Positions 16,160 through 55,620 of a stretch of 59,247 bases of DNA are shown piece by piece. Positions within the stretch are counted from its first letter, which is position 1. Every line of letters starts with the position of its first letter. The stretch is from an uncultured Candidatus Saccharibacteria bacterium. GTDB taxonomy: Bacteria > Patescibacteriota > Minisyncoccia > JACQLN01. The notes below the pieces were generated by a model. That model was not told the DNA's origin and made no database searches. It saw nothing but the letters and a program-made list of their open reading frames with translations. The stretch is from assembly GCA_964365305.1 (NCBI GenBank), contig CAYIPG010000002.1:1-59247 (forward strand), in the 5' to 3' direction. Made by a program: the position numbers and the translations under genes.

Positions 16160-16188
16160 AATTATCAAACACCGAGTGTTTGATAATT
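16160..16188. repeat. 29-bp perfect palindrome AATTATCAAACAC-CGA-GTGTTTGATAATT
   Basis: Lies exactly between the ligA stop and the stop of the Y1 gene. Confidence 0.9.
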
Positions 16189-16864
16189 AAAGTTCATCAT
16201 CTATATCTATTCTGTATTTTTCTTCTAAACTTTCCTTAGCGCTACTTTTTTTGATAAAATCGTGATACTTGTAATTTTCGCTAAATTGACCAGTTATAAT
16301 ACCAGGAACCAGTAGTTGTCCCCACCTATTTGTCTCTAAATAATCTTGATAACTTGACCACTCATAATTATGTTCTCTGTTTTTCCAATGTTTTAATCCC
16401 CTTGGGTTTTTGTGTATATAAGCAGAAAGATGAAGAAGTTGGAGGTTGTCATTAATATGTACAGCTTTAAAAGGACCTTGAAATAGATGGCCTATTTTGC
16501 GGTATTTGGTATTAAAGTATTTTGTATATGCATTCTGCACTCGTTGCATATAGTCGGATATACCGTTGTCTTTTATCTCTTTCACAATGATATGAAAATG
16601 GTTTGGCATTAGTGTAAAACCAATTAGATTAACCATCTTGTCTTTCATAAATTTATCGATCCCCTTAATTTTATTAAACACTCGGTGTTTAATAAAATGG
16701 GTTACATTGTAGCCAATATTGTTAAAAGATTGTTCGGATTGCAGATGTAAAATAAGAAAAAGGAATCTAACATAATCTCTTTCGTTTGTGAAAATATTTT
16801 GTTTATTATTACCTCTGTTGAATATATGGAAATGTTCTCCGGGAGCAAATTTAGTTTTCCTCAT
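16187..16864 (-). CDS. IS200/RAYT-like HUH-Y1 transposase-family protein
   Basis: HUH motif LMPNHFHIIV and C-terminal YIHKNP tyrosine motif. Flanked by matching palindromes. Confidence 0.8.
   Translation of the reverse strand: MRKTKFAPGEHFHIFNRGNNKQNIFTNERDYVRFLFLILHLQSEQSFNNIGYNVTHFIKHRVFNKIKGIDKFMKDKMVNLIGFTLMPNHFHIIVKEIKDNGISDYMQRVQNAYTKYFNTKYRKIGHLFQGPFKAVHINDNLQLLHLSAYIHKNPRGLKHWKNREHNYEWSSYQDYLETNRWGQLLVPGIITGQFSENYKYHDFIKKSSAKESLEEKYRIDIDDEL
16669..16697. repeat. 29-bp perfect palindrome TTTTATTAAACAC-TCG-GTGTTTAATAAAA inside the Y1 CDS
   Basis: Encodes FIKHRVFNK. Same AAACAC/GTGTTT core as the flanking palindrome. Confidence 0.9.
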
Positions 16865-16925
16865 AGTTATATTTTAATCTATCGAACACTCGGTGTCTAA
16901 TAAAAATTTGATAGAAGGGACGCTT

Positions 16926-19793: not shown

Positions 19794-20702
19794 ATGTTTA
19801 ATTCAACTCCAAAATCAATTTTAGTGTTGGTCGCGATAGCTATAGTATCCGGGTTTATCGGCGGTTATGTGGCCAATAATGCTAGCACCGCTCCGGCTCT
19901 TTTTGTGGGCGCTGATAAAAATAACAATTTGGATTTAAAAACCAGCGCCGCGCCGTTGGCAGTGCCTAAAGCCAGTTTGGCCCAGGAAGAGGCGGTGATC
20001 AATATCGTCAAGAAATATTCGCCAGCGGTGGTGAGTGTGATTGTTTCTAAAGATGTGCCGGTTTTGGAAAAATGTTCCGTTAGCCCTTTCGGCAATGATC
20101 CCTTTTTTAAACAATTTTTTGGCGATATTCAAATACAAACCCAATGTCAAAAGGGCACTAAACTTAAAGAAGTTGGCGGCGGTATTTCGGAAGAGTTGCG
20201 AAACATTATTCAGACCGACGCGGCCATAAACAGCGGCAACTCCGGCGGGCCGTTATTAAATCTAAAGGGAGAAGTTATCGGCGTGAATGTGGCGATGGCG
20301 CAAGACGCGCAGGGCATTAGTTTTGCCTTGCCAATAAACGAGGCCAAAAAAGCGGTTCAGGGTGTAAAGTCACAAGGCAAAATTGTTTATCCATTTTTGG
20401 GAATTAAGTTTGCCACTATTACCGAGAGTGTTCAGAAAGCAAATAATTTGCCAGTAAGCGAAGGTGCGTGGTTGAAGGCGTCTAACGGTGAGTCGTCGAT
20501 AGTCAAAGATAGTCCAGCCGACAAAGCCGGCCTTAAAGCCGGCAACATCATCACCGAAGTTAACGGCGAGAAACTCACCACCAAAAACCTGCTCTCGGAT
20601 GTTATTCAAAAATTTAATGTGGGCGAGACCATAAACCTAAAAGTTCTCCGCGGTGAACAAACCATAACTATTCCAGTGAAGTTGGAGGAGAGGAAGTTTT
20701 AG
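19794..20702 (+). CDS. HtrA/DegP-like protein with PDZ domain, lacking the His/Asp part of the protease domain
   Basis: Has [18 protein letters not shown] (Ser motif) and a PDZ domain, but the segment between EVGGG and IQTDAAIN is missing and the protein contains no His. Confidence 0.8.
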
Positions 20703-20713
20703 GTTTCGTTGAC

Positions 20714-20742
20714 TTGTCAATTTCCGTTGTCAGTGATAATAT
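20714..20742 (+). promoter_or_regulatory. candidate sigma-70 promoter TTGTCA-17-TAATAT with TG extension
   Basis: Sequence match, upstream of the small ORF 20767-20952. Confidence 0.45.
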
Positions 20743-20766
20743 AACAGTTGAAAGGAGGTGGGTCGT

Positions 20767-20952
20767 GTGGCAAAAAAGATCAAGAAGCCCAAGGGAGAAG
20801 CTATCATAGTTTCTTCCAAAAAAGGATTAGAGCCGGATTTTTTCAAGGCGTTGATGGCATTTCAATACGGCGAAGGAGAGGAATCCGACGCTGGCTTTGA
20901 AGAAATGAAACGACAGGCTCAAATCCCGCCCAAGAAAGAGGTGGGGAATTAA
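20767..20952 (+). CDS. small hypothetical protein
   Basis: SD GGAGG 8 nt upstream of GTG 20767 (track start GTG 20758 is too close to the SD). Intrinsic terminator follows. Confidence 0.55.
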   Translation: MAKKIKKPKGEAIIVSSKKGLEPDFFKALMAFQYGEGEESDAGFEEMKRQAQIPPKKEVGN

Positions 20953-20996
20953 AAGAGAAATTTTAGCCGGCACTCCTTGAGCAAGGGTGCGCTTCG

Positions 20997-21031
20997 GCCC
21001 GTCGAGAATAAAAAACTCGGCGGGCTTTTTT
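20997..21031 (+). terminator. intrinsic terminator
   Basis: GCCCGTCGAG-AATAAAAAA-CTCGGCGGGC followed by TTTTTT. Confidence 0.8.
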
Positions 21032-21035
21032 ATCT

Positions 21036-21064
21036 ATTTGTGCAAAACTGAGTTTTGCACAAAT
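21036..21064. repeat. 29-bp perfect palindrome ATTTGTGCAAAAC-TGA-GTTTTGCACAAAT
   Basis: 13+3+13 architecture, just after terminator 20997-21031 and upstream of secD. Confidence 0.88.
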
Positions 21065-21141
21065 TTACCATCAGGAGGTACTTACCTTTCTTTCTGCTTT
21101 TGACTTTTCATTTTAGATTCGTTATATATAGTTGGTAATCT

Positions 21142-22467
21142 ATGAAACCCCGATTCGCTATACCATTAATAATTCTGCTGGCCGTTATCGCCGGATTTTT
21201 TGTTTATCCGGATTTTTTGCAAAAGGGTGGGGTTTATCCCTCATTTTTAGTCAGACCTTTCCGCTTGGGTTTGGATCTTTTGGGCGGCACGCATTTGGTC
21301 TATGAGGCCGATCTTTCTCAAATACCCGATAGCGAACGATCGGTGGCTATGGAAGGCCTGCGAGATGTGATTGAACGGCGGGTTAATTTATTTGGCGTGG
21401 CCGAACCATTAGTGGCGGTTAGCAAAGCCGGCGAGAGCTGGCGGCTGGTGGTGGAACTGGCCGGTGTTAAAGATATCAATCAGGCCATTCAAATGATCGG
21501 CCAAACGCCCTATTTGGAATTTAAGGAAGAACGCCCGGAGGCCGAAACAAAACAAATTTTAGAATCGCTTAACGGCCAAACGCCCGATCCCAAAATTTTA
21601 GATCCTTATTTTACGCCCACAGCTTTAACTGGCCGCTATTTAAAAAAATCAACCTTGATTTTTGAACCCACTAGCGGCCGCCCCGAGGTGTTGTTGGAAT
21701 TTGACGATACGGGTAAACAGATTTTTGGCGAGATAACTAAAAAGAATGTAGACAAACGGTTGGCGATTTATTTGGACGGTTATCCGATTTCCGCGCCGGT
21801 GGTTCAGCAAGAAATTATTGATGGTAATGCCTCTATTACCGGAAATTTTTCGGTGGTGGAATCGCGCCAGTTAGTGGCGCGGCTTAACTCCGGCGCTTTG
21901 CCGGTGCCGATCAGCGTGTTGTCACAACAGAATATCGGCGCTTCGCTGGGGCATGATTATTTGGTTAAAAGTTTGGTGGCCGGCATTGTTGGTTTTATTT
22001 TGGTGGCTTTGTTTATGATTTTTTGGTACCGCTTGGCGGGCGTGGTGGCAGTGTTAGCGCTTAGCATTTATTCAATTTTACTTTTAGCGATTTTTAAATT
22101 AATACCGGTTACGCTAACTTTGGCGGGCATTGCCGGTTTTGTGCTTTCTATTGGCATGGCGGTGGACGCTAATATCCTTATTTATGAACGGCTGAAAGAA
22201 GAATTAAGAAGCGGTAAAATTTTTGGCGCGGCTTTGGAAGAGGGTTTTAACCGAGCTTGGAGTTCTATTCGCGATTCCAATGTTTCCAGTTTAATCACCT
22301 GCGCCATTTTATATTGGTTTGGCAGCAGTATTGTGCGCGGTTTTGCTTTAACGCTGGCCTTGGGCATTTTGGCCTCCATGTTTTCGGCCATAACCTTAAC
22401 TCGAACATTTTTGCGGGGTCTGGCTGGAACTCGCCTCGCCAGAGTTAATTTTTTGTGGAAACACTAA
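21142..22467 (+). CDS. secD: protein translocase subunit SecD
   Basis: SecD periplasmic domain plus 6-TM C-terminus (LGLDLLGGTHLVYE, SIGMAVDANILIYER). Confidence 0.92.
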   Translation: MKPRFAIPLIILLAVIAGFFVYPDFLQKGGVYPSFLVRPFRLGLDLLGGTHLVYEADLSQIPDSERSVAMEGLRDVIERRVNLFGVAEPLVAVSKAGESWRLVVELAGVKDINQAIQMIGQTPYLEFKEERPEAETKQILESLNGQTPDPKILDPYFTPTALTGRYLKKSTLIFEPTSGRPEVLLEFDDTGKQIFGEITKKNVDKRLAIYLDGYPISAPVVQQEIIDGNASITGNFSVVESRQLVARLNSGALPVPISVLSQQNIGASLGHDYLVKSLVAGIVGFILVALFMIFWYRLAGVVAVLALSIYSILLLAIFKLIPVTLTLAGIAGFVLSIGMAVDANILIYERLKEELRSGKIFGAALEEGFNRAWSSIRDSNVSSLITCAILYWFGSSIVRGFALTLALGILASMFSAITLTRTFLRGLAGTRLARVNFLWKH

Positions 22468-28261: not shown

Positions 28262-28372
28262 ATGGAAAATAAGAACACAAAGGTTTTTGTGGCGATGTCG
28301 GGCGGCGTGGATTCAAGCGTCGCGGTCCCGCCAGTAGAGCAAAGCTCACTACGGGACTGCCTTGAGTTTTAA
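28262..28372 (+). pseudogene. relic duplicate of the mnmA 5' end (PP-loop region) followed by a GC-rich hairpin
   Basis: Translates MENKNTKVFVAMSGGVDSSVA..., then 15 unrelated codons and a stop. Parallels MNEQTKNKKVFVAISGGVDSSVA of the real gene 115 nt downstream. Confidence 0.7.
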
Positions 28373-28376
28373 TAAT

Positions 28377-29504
28377 ATGAACGAGCAAACAAAAAATAAG
28401 AAAGTATTTGTAGCTATATCAGGCGGAGTTGATAGTAGCGTTGCTTTGTTGTTGCTTAAAAATCAAGGTTACGATGTTACGGGCGTGTTTATGAAAAACT
28501 GGGCTGATCCGGCTTGGCCTTGCCCGTGGGCCGAAGATCGCGCCGACGCTTTGCGTGTCTGCGTCAAGTTGGGCATTCCTTTTGAGACCTTTGATTTTAC
28601 AAAGGAATACAAAGCCACGGTGGTTGATTATATGATTCGCGAATATACTTCGGGCCGAACACCTAACCCCGATGTGATGTGCAACAAAGAAATAAAGTTT
28701 GGCTTGTTTTTTGATAGAGCGATGCAGATGGGCGCGGATTATATCGCCACAGGGCATTATGTTAGGTTAGCGACAAGTGACAAGGGACAAGGGACAAGTA
28801 AGAATCAAAACATGTCGCTTCTACGGGCTCGCGATCTAAATAAAGATCAAAGTTATTTTTTATGGACTTTAACCCAAGCCAGGCTTAGGCAATGTTTGTT
28901 TCCGATCGGTGAAATTGAATCCAAAACCGAAGTTCGCCGGCTAGCGGCCGAATATAATCTGCCCGTGGCCGATAAGAAGGACTCGCAGGGTATTTGTTTT
29001 ATGGGGCCGGTGGATGTGGCCGAGTTTATCAAACCATATGTCAAAACCGCTATCGGAGATATTGTAACCACCTCCGGCCAAAAAATCGGCACGCACGCCG
29101 GTTTGGATTTTTTCACTATCGGTCAGCGCAAAGGCATCGGCATCGGCGGCACCGGGCCGTATTATGTGACTCAAAAAAATTACGAAACCAATACTTTGGT
29201 AGTTGCGCCAGCTGCTGATCAAACTTCTTTAGAGTCCAGCTCGCTTATTGCAAGCGATATAAGTTTCGTAAACGATCTCACGAGCATGCGATCGCATGCT
29301 CGTGAGATCGGAGAAGAATCAATCAAGATACAAGCATCAATTCGATATCGGCAAGAACCTGTTCCAGCGACTTTATCTAAGGTCGGAGATGATAAGTGGC
29401 GAGTAGATTTTGAAACTCCCGTCCGCGCTATCACCCCCGGCCAGTCGGTGGTTTTTTATCAGAGCGAAGAAATGCTCGGGGGAGGTGTTATTGACATAGT
29501 ATAG
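28377..29504 (+). CDS. mnmA: tRNA 2-thiouridine(34) synthase
   Basis: PP-loop SGGVDSS, KDQSYFLW, and C-terminal domain. ATG 28377 preferred over TTG 28362. Confidence 0.92.
   Translation: MNEQTKNKKVFVAISGGVDSSVALLLLKNQGYDVTGVFMKNWADPAWPCPWAEDRADALRVCVKLGIPFETFDFTKEYKATVVDYMIREYTSGRTPNPDVMCNKEIKFGLFFDRAMQMGADYIATGHYVRLATSDKGQGTSKNQNMSLLRARDLNKDQSYFLWTLTQARLRQCLFPIGEIESKTEVRRLAAEYNLPVADKKDSQGICFMGPVDVAEFIKPYVKTAIGDIVTTSGQKIGTHAGLDFFTIGQRKGIGIGGTGPYYVTQKNYETNTLVVAPAADQTSLESSSLIASDISFVNDLTSMRSHAREIGEESIKIQASIRYRQEPVPATLSKVGDDKWRVDFETPVRAITPGQSVVFYQSEEMLGGGVIDIV
28772..28799 (+). repeat. four tandem heptamers GACAAG(T/G) inside mnmA
   Basis: GACAAGT GACAAGG GACAAGG GACAAGT. Bracketed by AGCGACA / TGTCGCT. 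Confidence 0.85.
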
Positions 29505-29980: not shown

Positions 29981-30048
29981 TTTTCTCGCTTTAATCCAAT
30001 TTTAACCCAAGCCCTGTCACATGCTATACTTTTAAAATATTATACTTT

Positions 30049-30076
30049 GCATGAGATAACGATCGTTATCTCATGC
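30049..30076. repeat. 28-bp perfect palindrome GCATGAGATAACGATCGTTATCTCATGC upstream of wHTH-Cas2-like gene A
   Basis: Follows a TATACT -10-like box. The 26-bp core is identical to 30695-30720. Confidence 0.92.
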
Positions 30077-30129
30077 AATATTTAGTCCAATATCAAATTA
30101 TATATCAAGCTATATATCAACAAACTATT

Positions 30130-30699
30130 ATGAAATCCGGTGGGAAATTACAAAGATTGGGTCCAAATCAGCAAAAGGTTTTATTGCTTTTATTTGGCGG
30201 GGTGGGATTAATGTTATCCCAATCCATTAAGACACAATTTAGAGTTATTAAAGAGGTCTCTAAAGAATGGAAAAATATAAATAATTTGAGTTTGAGAAGA
30301 GCGATTACTACTTTATATAAATCCAAACTTATTTTAGAAAAAGAAAATCCAGACGGGACGACCACTATGTTTTTAACTGAAAAGGGTAAAGAGAAGGCCA
30401 TCACTTTTAATATAGAAACAATAAAAATTATGTCGCCAAAGAGATGGGATAAAAAATGGCGGTTAGTTGTCTTTGATATACCGGAAAAGAAAAGAAAGGC
30501 TCGCGATGCTTTGAGAGAGGTATTAAAGAAGATGGAGTTTTATGAATATCAAAAAAGCATTTTTATTCACCCTTACCATTGTAGAGATGAGTTAGATTAT
30601 ATCATTGAATTTTTTAGGATGAGACCTTATGTTAGGTTAATTGTGTCGGAGGAATTAGATAATGAATTACATCTTAGAAAGATTTTCAACCTATCATGA
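30130..30699 (+). CDS. winged-helix (PaaX-N-like) plus Cas2/VapD-like domain protein
   Basis: WDKKWRLVVFDIPEKKRKARDALREVLKKMEFYEYQKSIFIHPY matches the Cas2-like beta1-alpha1 pattern with conserved Asp. The track N-terminus from 30073 is low-complexity repeat DNA. Confidence 0.75.
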   Translation: MKSGGKLQRLGPNQQKVLLLLFGGVGLMLSQSIKTQFRVIKEVSKEWKNINNLSLRRAITTLYKSKLILEKENPDGTTTMFLTEKGKEKAITFNIETIKIMSPKRWDKKWRLVVFDIPEKKRKARDALREVLKKMEFYEYQKSIFIHPYHCRDELDYIIEFFRMRPYVRLIVSEELDNELHLRKIFNLS

Positions 30700-30724
30700 G
30701 ATAACGATCGTTATCTCATGATAG
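30691..30724. repeat. 34-bp perfect palindrome CTATCATGAGATAACGATCGTTATCTCATGATAG overlapping the stop codon of gene A
   Basis: Stop TGA 30697-30699 lies in the left arm. 26-bp core identical to the upstream copy. Confidence 0.92.
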
Positions 30725-30782
30725 ATATGGTAGGTTAGATCTATTGTTAAATATTTTTTAGCAGATTAGAATTGCTTTATAT

Positions 30783-34360: not shown

Positions 34361-34383
34361 TGTCCAACATCCAATGTTGGACA
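34361..34383. repeat. 23-bp perfect palindrome TGTCCAACAT-CCA-ATGTTGGACA
   Basis: 4 nt after stop 34357. Confidence 0.85.
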
Positions 34384-53100: not shown

Positions 53101-53102
53101 TC

Positions 53103-53125
53103 ATATCGGTTTGCGAAACCGATAT
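53103..53125. repeat. 23-bp palindrome ATATCGGTTT-GCG-AAACCGATAT
   Basis: 13 nt upstream of ATG 53138. Confidence 0.9.
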
Positions 53126-53137
53126 ATAATACGAATT

Positions 53138-53857
53138 ATGTATAGTAAAAAGTCATACCCAGGTAATTTGTATCATGTCCTTAATCGTGGTGTTGATAAG
53201 AGGATTATCTTTATCGATAAAGTTGATTATTTAAGATTTATTCGTATTTTGTACGATTTTAATAATATTGAACCGGTGAGTAATTTTAGTTATTTTTTTG
53301 CTAAACAAAAACAAGAAAATTCTATTGGTTTCGCAAACAGATATGGAGTTGGATATAATCAGGGTTCTAGAAAGGTGCTGGTTGATGTTTTGGCTTTTGT
53401 TCTTATGCCCAATCATTATCATTTATTATTAAAACCGCGAATTGAAAATGGTGTAACTCTTTTTATGAAGAAAATTAATATTGGCTATGCGAATTATTTT
53501 AATAAAAAATATGAACGGAGTGGTGCTTTATTCCAAGGGCGTTACAAATCTGTGATTGTGACTAAGGAAGCTCATTTTATACATTTACCTTATTATATTC
53601 ATGCTAATCCTTTGGACTTGGTTATTCCTGAATGGAGAGATGGAAAAGTAAGAAACCCAAAAAAAGCAATGAACTTTTTGAAAAGTTATCGTTGGAGTAG
53701 TTTTAGTGATTATATCGGTCGTGTGAATTTTCCACTAACAACTCAAAGGGATTTTCTTTTGGAATTTGTAGGTGGAACTACAAGGTACAAAATAAATTTT
53801 TCAGAGTGGCTTCGAGCGATGGATATGGATAAACTAAACAGCTTTACTTTGGAATAA
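53138..53857 (+). CDS. IS200/RAYT-like HUH-Y1 transposase-family protein, paralog 2
   Basis: LMPNHYHLLLKP (HUH) and YYIHANP (Tyr motif). ATG 53138; the track start 53081 reads through the flanking palindrome. Confidence 0.8.
   Translation: MYSKKSYPGNLYHVLNRGVDKRIIFIDKVDYLRFIRILYDFNNIEPVSNFSYFFAKQKQENSIGFANRYGVGYNQGSRKVLVDVLAFVLMPNHYHLLLKPRIENGVTLFMKKINIGYANYFNKKYERSGALFQGRYKSVIVTKEAHFIHLPYYIHANPLDLVIPEWRDGKVRNPKKAMNFLKSYRWSSFSDYIGRVNFPLTTQRDFLLEFVGGTTRYKINFSEWLRAMDMDKLNSFTLE
53323..53343. repeat. degenerate intragenic copy TATTGGTTT-CGC-AAACAGATA
   Basis: Encodes SIGFANRY. Differs at 2 positions from the 3' flank copy. Confidence 0.8.
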
Positions 53858-53863
53858 TTTAAT

Positions 53864-53884
53864 TATCGGTTTCGCAAACCGATA
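53864..53884. repeat. 21-bp palindrome TATCGGTTT-CGC-AAACCGATA
   Basis: 6 nt after stop 53857. Its last base is the A of the next ATG. Confidence 0.9.
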
Positions 53885-54234
53885 TGGGGTTATTTAACTT
53901 TATGGACTACCAAATTAATAAAAAGTTATTGGGTTCGAAATATCGGCGGGAGATGTGGCAAAACTCCAAAAACATAATTAAAAAATTGGAGAAAGTTTTA
54001 CCGATTTCAGAGGCCTACTTAATGGGTGGTTTTACCACCAAGAAGCCCCGCCCCGCCGATGTAGATTTTATAATTTTGCTGAAAATAAAAGACAAAAACC
54101 ATAAAGCCAAATGGTCGGTGGATTTGGTCATCGCTCCCGACAACAAATATGGCCAGTTTGTGCTGGAAGATGGTGATAAATGGGTCAAAGAAAAATATGG
54201 GTTGGATAAATCAACCATGATAAGAATTAGATAA
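53884..54234 (+). CDS. minimal nucleotidyltransferase-fold protein (Pol-beta superfamily-like)
   Basis: MGGFTTKKPRPADVDFIILL resembles the GS-x(n)-DxD NTase motif. Confidence 0.5.
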   Translation: MGLFNFMDYQINKKLLGSKYRREMWQNSKNIIKKLEKVLPISEAYLMGGFTTKKPRPADVDFIILLKIKDKNHKAKWSVDLVIAPDNKYGQFVLEDGDKWVKEKYGLDKSTMIRIR

Positions 54235-54280
54235 CCTATTATTTGCCTTTAGTTTTTTGTTTTGCTAGAATGTCGGCATT

Positions 54281-54969: not shown

Positions 54970-55593
54970 ATGGACGAACAAAATAATTCAGACGGTCAAA
55001 ATAGTCAGGAATTTGATAAAAAAGAACGCCGCGAGTTGAGGCGTCAGGAAGAAGAACAACAGCAGGCGTCTAGACAGATACACAAAAAGACAAAAAAGAT
55101 ATTTGTTTGGATTGGAGTTGTTGCTGTTTTGGCGTGGGGCGGTTGGGGTGTTTACAAATGGGTCAAGACATCTGAAGCCGATAAACCCGGCGAGGCCATT
55201 TCTATTCAACCGGCCGAGCATATTCAGCCCGGCGAACCTTTGCCTGGTTTATATCTTTCCAATCCGCCGGTCTCGGGTTGGCACTATGGTCAAACGGCGG
55301 AATGGGGTATTTATGATAAAGAATTGATTGATCAGAATGTTATTCATAATCTAGAGCATGGCGGCATTTGGATTTCTTACAAGCCCGACGCGCCGACGGA
55401 ACTTATCGCCAAATTAAAAGAGGTGGCGGGCAGATACAGTCGGAAAGTGATATTGGCTCCGCGCGCGGCCAACGATTCCATAATCGCTGTGGCCGCTTGG
55501 GGGCGGTTGGATAAATTTGGTTATTTTGACGAAGCCCGCATTGTAAAATTCATCAAGGCCTTCAAAGACAAAGGCCCCGAATTTGTTCCATAA
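54970..55593 (+). CDS. DUF3105-like membrane-anchored protein
   Basis: TM, then HNLEHGGIWISYKPD motif. Confidence 0.7.
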   Translation: MDEQNNSDGQNSQEFDKKERRELRRQEEEQQQASRQIHKKTKKIFVWIGVVAVLAWGGWGVYKWVKTSEADKPGEAISIQPAEHIQPGEPLPGLYLSNPPVSGWHYGQTAEWGIYDKELIDQNVIHNLEHGGIWISYKPDAPTELIAKLKEVAGRYSRKVILAPRAANDSIIAVAAWGRLDKFGYFDEARIVKFIKAFKDKGPEFVP

Positions 55594-55620
55594 ATGTTAA
55601 ACATCGGATGTTTAACATTT
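55592..55620. repeat. 29-bp perfect palindrome AAATGTTAAACAT-CGG-ATGTTTAACATTT
   Basis: 13+3+13. Overlaps the stop codon 55591-55593. Confidence 0.88.

Follow-up and report, generated by a model that had tools for sequence, protein, structure and literature searches.

A REP/RAYT-type module of Patescibacteria with a third palindrome copy inside its own Y1 HUH gene

Two Y1 HUH genes and their palindromes

The DNA analysed here (the window) is a stretch of 59,247 nucleotides from an uncultured Candidatus Saccharibacteria bacterium (GenBank assembly GCA_964365305.1, contig CAYIPG010000002.1), and it holds two paralogous genes for predicted Y1 HUH enzymes, each accompanied by three copies of a palindrome of its own, one of which lies in frame inside the gene. 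The unit around the gene at 53138-53857 is termed W2 and the paralogous unit around the gene at 16187-16864 on the minus strand W1. L-numbers denote the relative loci compared, L161 being the ortholog of W2 and L162-L165 those of the W1 unit. The W2 unit is composed as follows.

53103..53125, + strand: upstream palindrome, ATATCGGTTT-gcg-AAACCGATAT (read from the sequence and by mismatch-tolerant search)
53138..53857, + strand: W2 gene, Y1 HUH enzyme of 239 aa (open reading frame, Pfam PF01797)
53323..53343, + strand: internal in-frame copy, TATTGGTTT-cgc-AAACAGATA, residues 62-69, SIGFANRY
53864..53884, + strand: downstream palindrome, TATCGGTTT-cgc-AAACCGATA, 0 mismatches

A first-pass annotation had described this layout, with one copy of two mismatches encoding SIGFANRY, and every copy lies where it was placed; both protein motifs given, PNHYH and YYIHANP, are found, and the 6 nt between the stop and the downstream copy are confirmed. 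The packing is tight: the mreC stop is followed by 2 nt, the upstream palindrome and a further 12 nt before the ATG of the W2 gene, and the final base of the downstream palindrome is the A of the next gene's ATG (DUF6932, 53884-54234). The core 21-mer of the upstream palindrome (53104-53124) has a GCG loop and 0 mismatches in the mismatch-tolerant search, and as single-stranded DNA (ssDNA) the palindrome folds at -8.1 kcal/mol (z = -5.1), the downstream one at -7.2 kcal/mol (z = -4.3). The internal copy, with a CGC loop, carries two mismatches, both synonymous (ATC>ATT, CGA>AGA), that break its stem and leave it unfolded as ssDNA (-0.9 kcal/mol, z = -0.15); it has decayed in the window genome. 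The palindrome TATCGGTTT-nnn-AAACCGATA is matched 3 times in the 59-kb window against 0.06 expected, a count reached in 0/100 shuffles, and the mismatch-tolerant search found no W2 copy in the window beyond the three of the unit. Family alignment sets the N-terminus at the ATG at 53138 and not at an upstream TTG (53081). The frame stays open from the ATG back to that TTG, and the upstream palindrome shares the codon phase of the internal copy, such that reading from the TTG would give HIGLRNRY for the former and SIGFANRY for the latter.

The paralogous unit repeats this arrangement with another palindrome.

16160..16188, - strand: downstream W1 palindrome, AATTATCAAACAC-tcg-GTGTTTGATAATT (gene strand), fold -10.4 kcal/mol
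16187..16864, - strand: W1 gene, Y1 HUH paralog of 225 aa, 32% identical to W2
16668..16698, - strand: internal in-frame W1 palindrome, ATTTTATTAAACAC-cga-GTGTTTAATAAAAT, intact, fold -10.2 kcal/mol, z = -8.1
16880..16903, - strand: degenerate upstream W1 copy, arms no longer pairing, fold -1.5 kcal/mol

The W1 palindromes share the core AAACAC-nnn-GTGTTT. Translation of the internal one gives FIKHRVFNK at about residues 57-65, and a single compensated stem pair, T-A to C-G, separates it from the downstream copy, while the upstream copy is 88% complementary to the downstream copy and is found in the same degenerate state in the ortholog L162. Judged by ssDNA folding, the decayed copy is thus the internal one in W2 and the upstream one in W1. 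The internal palindromes occupy a like place in the two proteins, 26 (W2) and 25 (W1) residues from LMPNH, as had been claimed. It had also been suggested to check by structure prediction whether the peptide is a dispensable loop, which is supported in W2, where residues 59-74, holding the internal-copy peptide, have a model confidence (pLDDT) <50 in an AlphaFold2 model of overall pLDDT 87, and fails in W1 (model pLDDT 89.5), where the peptide forms the end of helix 50-60 and a turn at pLDDT about 90, with the conserved motif FVKHRVFNI. In the W1 orthologs L162-L165 (90% identical in amino acids) the contigs shown, from four assemblies, all end 51 nt past the Y1 stop and just beyond the downstream hairpin, which suggests a repeat or strain heterogeneity at this boundary.

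Both proteins match the Y1_Tnp family (PF01797; 36.5 bits for W2 and 39.5 for W1, cut-off 23) and stay under the cut-off of 80 of the NCBIfam RAYT model NF047646 (39.5 bits for W2 and 38.6 for W1). In a Foldseek comparison, the top PDB match of the W2 model is 4ER8, the E. coli TnpA_REP with its repetitive extragenic palindrome (REP) (E = 3e-5), followed by 2XO6, 2XM3 and 2VJU, structures of ISDra2 and IS608 TnpA. The HUH histidines (H93/H95 in W2) and the column of the catalytic tyrosine, Y153, which in W2 lies in YIHANP, are invariant in 150 sequences. The tyrosine motif is of the class-2 type, Y---NP (YIHANP in W2, YIHKNP in W1, YIHLNP in the consensus), and the alignments give the motif set MPNH[YF]H, LFQG (LFQGRYK), YIH(L/A/K)NP and (Y/E)xWSS (YRWSS) at lengths of 225-240 aa. 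On motif comparison alone, this set together with a length of ~238 aa fits TnpA_Y1 subclass 2.1, whose criteria are NH[YF]H, FQ, Y[IV]HLNP, a proximal SS and a median of ~238 aa (Table 1 of PMC6006769) and which has been equated with the TIRYTs of Di Nocera 2013 and with RAYT group 1 of Bertels 2017 (PMC6006769). A C-terminal helix-turn-helix (HTH) or DnaA_C-like domain was not detected, Y1_Tnp being the sole Pfam match at E <= 0.01, and the C-terminal third is helical in the models of W2 and W1. The W2 gene has a ratio of nonsynonymous to synonymous divergence (dN/dS) of about 0.13 against L161.

Homologs number >4,200 for W2 and >2,400 for W1, and the sources named by organism are Patescibacteria. 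The closest homologs fetched from outside this group come from proteobacterial plasmids and are 26-29% identical, and a scan of IMG/VR viral contigs returned two distant relatives only. In the palindrome-bearing relative L169 (27% identical, on an IMG/VR contig classed as viral; 1297-1328, 1425-1455, 2062-2101), palindromes ATACGATGACT-cca-AGTCATCGTAT flank the gene and an internal copy was not detected. As part of the reading of the module favoured below, the gene product is predicted to be a class-2 Y1 HUH ssDNA nuclease/transposase of the RAYT/TIRYT branch. The idea that the internal-copy peptide is itself a DNA-reading element, a 'self-referential code', found no support: the W2 segment is disordered, and the residues reported to contact the hairpin in 4ER8 (K82, R78, R97) lie C-terminal to the HUH motif, unlike this peptide.

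The internal copy in two subfamilies

The wider comparison drew 80 W2-type loci from genomes and 80 W1-type loci from metagenomes, and 82 and 80 loci respectively were analysed. An internal match was defined as the 21-mer of a locus's own flank found inside the coding sequence with <=2 mismatches, the palindromes of other loci serving as control. A flank hairpin of at least 8 bp is present at 76/82 W2-type and 73/80 W1-type loci, and the locus's own palindrome recurs in the coding sequence in 48/76 of the former (63%) against 65/5700 non-cognate tests (1.1%), and in 33/73 of the latter (45%) against 3.9%. The matches fall at one place, 19-30 codons upstream of HUH. Measured from the HUH codon, every W2-subfamily match is centred between 57 and 90 nt upstream (median -72), and the middle of its palindrome occupies codon position 1; the usual W1-subfamily position is -80 nt, and there the middle falls on codon position 2. 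Hairpins with stems of 8 bp or more are seen upstream, downstream and internally at 80%, 85% and 56% of W2-type loci and at 76%, 78% and 56% of W1-type loci, while control windows of 50 nt elsewhere in the same genes reach 1.2%. The internal palindrome is a conserved family feature and no accident, as the first-pass annotation had proposed, and the relationship between internal segment and flanking hairpins that it expected of a larger sample holds, with non-cognate matching at only 1-4%.

The explanation that the internal match arose by chance, or persists as a relic only through selection on the encoded peptide, could draw on W2 itself, where both mismatches are synonymous and the hairpin is unfolded. 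For the family it is refuted, and its probability is negligible, by the cognate over non-cognate matching (63% vs 1.1%), by third codon positions that match the flank as well as the first and second, and by stems that covary across 81 genes. The same annotation held that each gene has its own hairpin, and indeed one palindrome is common to the three sites of a locus and co-resident paralogs carry different palindromes. Contrary to its statement, the palindromes of the two paralogs are not wholly unrelated: each subfamily has a shared architecture with few variable stem positions, AATnTAnnGACnTCnGAnGTCnnTAnATT in the W2 type and TGTnnnACAy-nnn-rTGTnnnACA in the W1 type. Its rule that the loop of one flank is inverted relative to the other two copies turned out to be specific to the window, since the four orientation combinations occur 19, 12, 7 and 6 times among 44.

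Whether or not an internal match is detectable, the region from FEFN to HUH is equally long (44 aa with a match vs 42 aa without), and genes without a match often keep the peptide motif. The internal copy therefore decays in place, and the idea of an insertion that is present or absent was rejected. The internal hairpin is decayed in about 40-44% of genes with an intact open reading frame, W2 included, and this loss while the reading frame stays under purifying selection implies that the protein can do without the internal copy.

How the three copies relate to one another was assessed with the internal site defined by family consensus and codon phase only, to avoid circularity. The internal site matches its own flank at 75/75/72% of codon positions 1/2/3 and the flanks of other loci at 54/51/51%, and at family-variable positions the match is 71% for cognate and 37% for non-cognate pairs. 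A flank copy set at the internal site would bring an in-frame TAG or TAA in 19/48 loci, and the internal copy differs at that would-be stop codon in 19/19 of them, most having the other 23/24 nt identical between internal and flank copy. The usual change is TAG/TAA to TAT, which accounts for the tyrosine conserved in the encoded motif '...PYI'. Nearly all departures of the internal copy from the flanks are at positions where it would otherwise gain an in-frame stop. Where internal and flank copies do differ, compensated differences were counted 21 times in the W1 and 6 times in the W2 subfamily, where rough estimates predict about 1 and about 1.4. In the 13-bp stem, across 81 genes, paired cells make up 73.9% vs 57.1% in shuffles, double-change cells number 178 vs 73, and the covariation score is 0.384 vs 0.133 when shuffled (0/500) and <=0.137 with slid partners. 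Mismatches per 25-mer amount to 2.6 from internal to flank and 2.0 from flank to flank, and of 11 stem positions 1.6 are unpaired internally and 1.3 and 1.1 in the flanks. The three copies evolve in concert as DNA, each keeping its own pairing. One stretch of 21-29 nt must work as palindromic DNA and be translated at once, a natural experiment in which the conflict between palindrome and codons is resolved by a fixed codon phase, by stop-avoiding edits and by placement in a tolerant loop (W2) vs a conserved helix end (W1).

The palindromes might instead work in RNA and tune expression, the 5' one as a stem-loop, the internal one as a pause or RNase site and the 3' one as a terminator or stabiliser; both outer copies do abut the ends of the reading frame, and solo hairpins of the same architecture stand just after the stops of other genes, as many REPs do (PMC3733652). 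This is very improbable, because stem mismatches of the G.T kind are about as common as A.C ones at each of the three sites and in either subfamily, leaving no excess of mismatches that would be G.U-compatible on the sense strand, and because loop orientation flips freely. Moreover, the downstream hairpin lacks a following T-run on the plus strand, the sole terminator-like match being the upstream hairpin on the minus strand; Rfam gave no family matches, and promoter and terminator scans were at or below chance. The constraint acts on DNA and not on sense RNA.

A further claim, that protein and hairpin co-evolve, needs correction. Covariation among the three DNA copies is tight; that between protein and hairpin is weakly visible at most, the Mantel test of protein identity outside the loop against flank-hairpin identity giving r = 0.13 (58/2000 permutations as high).

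Inheritance and upkeep of the module

The ortholog L161 keeps the gene order around W2, with identities of 84% for the Y1 protein, about 72-73% for MreC and 90% for DUF6932. Its flank stems equal those of the window while the adjacent spacer has diverged, and both 3-nt loops are inverted (GCG/CGC in the window, CGC/GCG in L161). Its internal copy is a perfect palindrome, from which it follows that the internal copy of W2 in the window is a recent decay product. The interval between mreC and dsbA was compared in a graded series of MreC homologs, listed with their MreC identity to the window:

Window, MreC 100%: mreC-dsbA interval (53101-54280) with Y1 unit and DUF6932
L161, MreC about 72-73%: Y1 unit and DUF6932
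L171, MreC 88%: 46-nt spacer, without Y1, DUF6932 or hairpin
L172, MreC 89%: only a 3' fragment of DUF6932, a deletion remnant
L173, MreC 80%: one solo hairpin, built like those of the family but around another core, TATCAACTT-cgc-AAGTCGATA
L174 and L175, MreC 57-59%: without Y1, and no family-type hairpin seen

The L174 interval contains a GC-rich, terminator-like hairpin. As these intervals compare, mreC-dsbA is an indel hotspot, and the module is mostly inherited in place, yet accessory. The DUF6932 gene is unrelated to the module and was dismissed as a partner gene, being absent at all 160 other Y1 loci.

That the unit is an active insertion sequence of the IS200/IS605 kind, with the flank hairpins as its ends and the internal copy as an alternative end mobilising sub-segments, would accord with several findings. 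In several groups of loci, megablast and alignments show nucleotide homology starting and stopping at the outer edges of the palindromes; the unit is missing from the mreC-dsbA spacer of close relatives; genomes hold several diverged Y1 paralogs; and Y1 genes are more AT-rich than their flanks, with a mean GC of 34.9% vs 43.4% and a lower value in 134/135 loci (the comparison took in 135 loci, drawn from L001-L160 plus both units of the window, that have 1.5 kb of flank or more). This explanation is nevertheless improbable. The neighbours of the pairs that seemed to share the unit only are homologous at 70-87% of amino acids by tblastx; such pairs are syntenic orthologs with faster-diverging neighbours, and recent transposition was rejected on this ground. 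Identical or near-identical Y1 copies in different contexts were not found among the compared loci. Loci with 99% identity or more have the whole of their flanks in common (L020/L077, L147/L148), and between L090 and L091 identity is 100% across the entire 1.7-kb overlap of two short contigs. Fragments holding only the N- or the C-terminal part of the gene were absent from the window and the 160 loci (about 1 Mb of sampled DNA), on which ground mobilisation of sub-elements (upstream to internal, internal to downstream) was also rejected. The tyrosine motif is the class-2 Y---NP where IS200 transposases have Y---Q, and the indel at the locus includes DUF6932, its right side not being bounded by a hairpin.

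In about 6/9 ortholog pairs the Y1 gene has the lowest synonymous divergence (dS) in its neighbourhood, or the second lowest, and in several pairs its dS is 2-6x below that of the syntenic neighbours (e.g. 0.24-0.31 vs 0.9-2.2). The low-dS ortholog groups are L085/L088/L097/L104, L125/L134, L023/L050 and L069/L078, and window vs L161. A unit younger than its flanks was set aside as an explanation, being confounded by a Y1 GC content at third codon positions (GC3) of about 0.2 in the examples; the GC of Y1 genes also tracks that of the host (r = 0.81). The low dS could reflect more recent exchange of the unit or a compositional artefact of low GC3. In L023 and L035 a motif, AGCGCnCGGTTG, stands on both sides of the Y1 unit, ~45-65 nt upstream and ~55 nt downstream, and might represent either another flanking repeat or a duplicated target.

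The explanation we favour, with moderate confidence, is a compact module, widespread in Patescibacteria, with three concerted hairpins of which the internal one is passively maintained. In it a Y1 HUH gene stands closely between two palindrome copies of 21-29 nt, and a third copy lies in frame in the connection between alpha-B and the pre-HUH beta-strand, as a 'REP inside its own RAYT-like gene'. The palindromes would be the ssDNA hairpin substrates of the enzyme, by analogy with TnpA_REP and REP and with the end hairpins of IS200/IS605, for which the biochemistry of TnpA_REP and TnpA_IS200 provides the basis (PMC3479197, PMC8266576). Extruded hairpins may be nicked by the encoded enzyme and engage in template switching or strand transfer between nearby identical hairpins; copy-correction of this kind is the most likely way in which the copies are kept alike, and the frequent flips of the 3-nt loop may be its footprint. 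Passive maintenance is favoured because the internal copy is lost in about 44% of otherwise intact genes, because the variable hairpin bases do not track the protein, and because in-gene REPs have a precedent as tolerated insertions in subclass 2.4.

Several points weigh against this reading. The correlation between protein and hairpin is weak (r = 0.13), so that protein recognition of the variable stem bases stays putative. Junctions, circles or partial copies were not found in the window and the 160 loci, copy-correction being what we infer from the pattern. The codon phases differ between the subfamilies, and a single ancient origin would thus need extra frame-restoring indels. In W1 the peptide is ordered and conserved, and the constraint there may run from protein to DNA. 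Finally, selection for a function of the internal copy would give the same covariation.

Such selection is the core of the alternative that the internal hairpin is a selected cis-acting site, be it an autoregulatory binding or nicking site, a roadblock or a third recombination site, which we consider a tentative but serious possibility. One structural position is kept in two subfamilies that are 32% identical and in more than half of the 160 loci, and retention despite the different codon phases of the W1 and W2 subfamilies points the same way. The quality of the internal palindrome is near that of the flanks (1.6 vs 1.3 and 1.1 unpaired of 11), compensated changes preserve pairing even where the internal copy differs from the flanks, and W1-type flank hairpins stay near the sequence encoding the conserved, ordered peptide, as if all three had to match. 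However, decay in about 44% of genes with intact reading frames, in W2 through two synonymous changes, makes the site dispensable over long periods; template switching or conversion among neighbouring repeats could produce such a pattern with no selection at work; and a scan found promoter and terminator signals at the internal site not above chance. Sequence data alone do not separate passive maintenance from a selected cis-site. It is possible, though well short of probable, that the site is a working target of its own enzyme, a large, ancient HUH lineage keeping its recognition hairpin in its reading frame with an activity that feeds back on the gene. If so, feedback could act by binding, nicking, a roadblock or hairpin-to-hairpin strand exchange with both ends, and the three sites would have to match one another and not the protein, like crossover sites in recombination. 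A functional internal copy would amount to a new kind of self-regulation of HUH enzymes. The units offer simple substrates for a first biochemistry of Patescibacteria Y1 enzymes, namely cognate and non-cognate hairpins and decayed and perfect internal copies.

Beyond the two units, the window contains further palindromes.

21036-21064: solo hairpin of the W1 architecture TGTnnnACAy-nnn-rTGTnnnACA with its own variable core, in the intergenic spacer 20702-21142
34361-34383: solo hairpin of the W1 architecture with its own variable core, at or just past the stop codon of an unrelated gene
55592-55620: solo hairpin of the W1 architecture with its own variable core, likewise at or just past the stop codon of an unrelated gene
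29273-29310, 30047-30078 and 30689-30726: palindromes with a GATC loop, a third family of the window

The W1 architecture is matched 6 times in the window (the three solo hairpins and the W1 triad) against 0.37 expected, and the solo hairpin at 55592 is absent from the close relative L171. Two related GATC-loop copies, ..CATGAGATAAC-gatc-GTTATCTCATG.., bracket an open reading frame at 30073-30699, whose product of 208 aa has a PaaX_M/Cas2-like domain, and a different 17-bp palindrome with the same GATC loop lies inside the mnmA-like gene 28362-29504.

Comparison with known systems

Among domesticated transposases that live alongside short repeats of their own, RAYT with REP is the case known best. 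The W1 and W2 modules resemble REPtrons (Nunvar 2010; Bertels & Rainey 2011; Ton-Hoang 2012; Messing 2012, PMC3479197; Corneloup 2021, PMC8266576) in having a Y1 HUH enzyme with Y---NP, in genes bracketed by gene-specific palindromes with co-resident paralogs each having their own, and in being mostly single-locus, syntenic and under purifying selection. Unlike REPtrons, their palindromes lack the GT[AG]G foot (the family consensus is AATnTAnnGACnTCnGAnGTCnnTAnATT and the W2 foot CATATCGG) and are not dispersed at high copy, only 16 distal copies of a unit's palindrome occurring in 373 kb of flanks and none in the window outside the triads. With about 225-240 aa the protein exceeds theirs in length, its score is under the NCBIfam RAYT cut-off, and a third palindrome copy lies within the open reading frame. 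The IS200/IS605 family, with a TnpA of ~150 aa, Y---Q and near-identical copies, differs from the Y---NP enzymes of 225-240 aa described here.

The selected cis-site considered above would be comparable to the origins that some HUH Rep proteins carry within their own rep genes, as in pT181 repC and phiX174 gene A. As in these cases, a presumed recognition hairpin sits in the coding sequence of its own HUH protein and relatives differ in specificity; unlike these initiators of single-origin plasmids and phages, the module is chromosomal and has three copies.

The nearest precedent for the internal copy is subclass 2.4, in which REPs occur in frame inside tnpA_REP, between HuH and Y (Quentin, Siguier, Chandler & Fichant 2018, PMC6006769). 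There, as here, a cognate REP lies inside the enzyme gene with the frame unbroken and in a region judged peripheral to the catalytic core. The W1 and W2 copy differs in lying N-terminal to HUH, in the connection from alpha-B to beta-2, in enzymes with the motifs FQ and YIHLNP; in keeping one position and codon phase per subfamily across two large Patescibacteria subfamilies; and in covarying quantitatively with the flanks. Palindromic repeats are also found in frame in ordinary genes, such as the Rickettsia palindromic elements (RPEs) and intragenic GTAG/CGTC REPs (PMC3733652), which, like the internal copy, are palindromic repeats read as protein, mostly where the protein tolerates it. Those are dispersed repeats inserted in unrelated genes, whereas the host gene of the W1 and W2 copies is the very enzyme presumed to act on the repeat, and their internal site is conserved family-wide.

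In their protein signatures, their length of ~238 aa and their few or no dispersed repeats, the W1 and W2 genes resemble TIRYTs, subclass 2.1 and RAYT group 1 (PMC3733652, PMC6006769, PMC5581495). The plasmid homologs L166-L168 have terminal inverted repeats (TIRs) of 19-26 nt of the GGGGTCAGA type, the published GGGGWSAS motif, and an intragenic copy is absent at these three plasmid TIRYT loci examined. Unlike TIRYTs, the W1 and W2 genes are flanked by complete palindromes of other sequence in place of 19-26 nt TIRs with GGGGWSAS, and Pfam found no HTH or DnaA-like C-terminal domain in W1 or W2. Subclass 2.1 has been reported to be without REP-like sequences (PMC6006769). Literature searches returned no description of a Patescibacteria instance of an in-gene cognate hairpin, of an in-gene REP in the 2.1/TIRYT-like branch, or of a fixed N-terminal site, codon-phase conservation, stop-avoiding edits and three-site covariation. 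The module is an unreported variant of known REP/RAYT-type systems: it extends in-gene REPs, earlier noted for one subclass, to a branch reported as REP-free, and it adds a Patescibacteria lineage of thousands of members, often several per tiny genome, in which the system is reduced to three hairpins, one of them translated.

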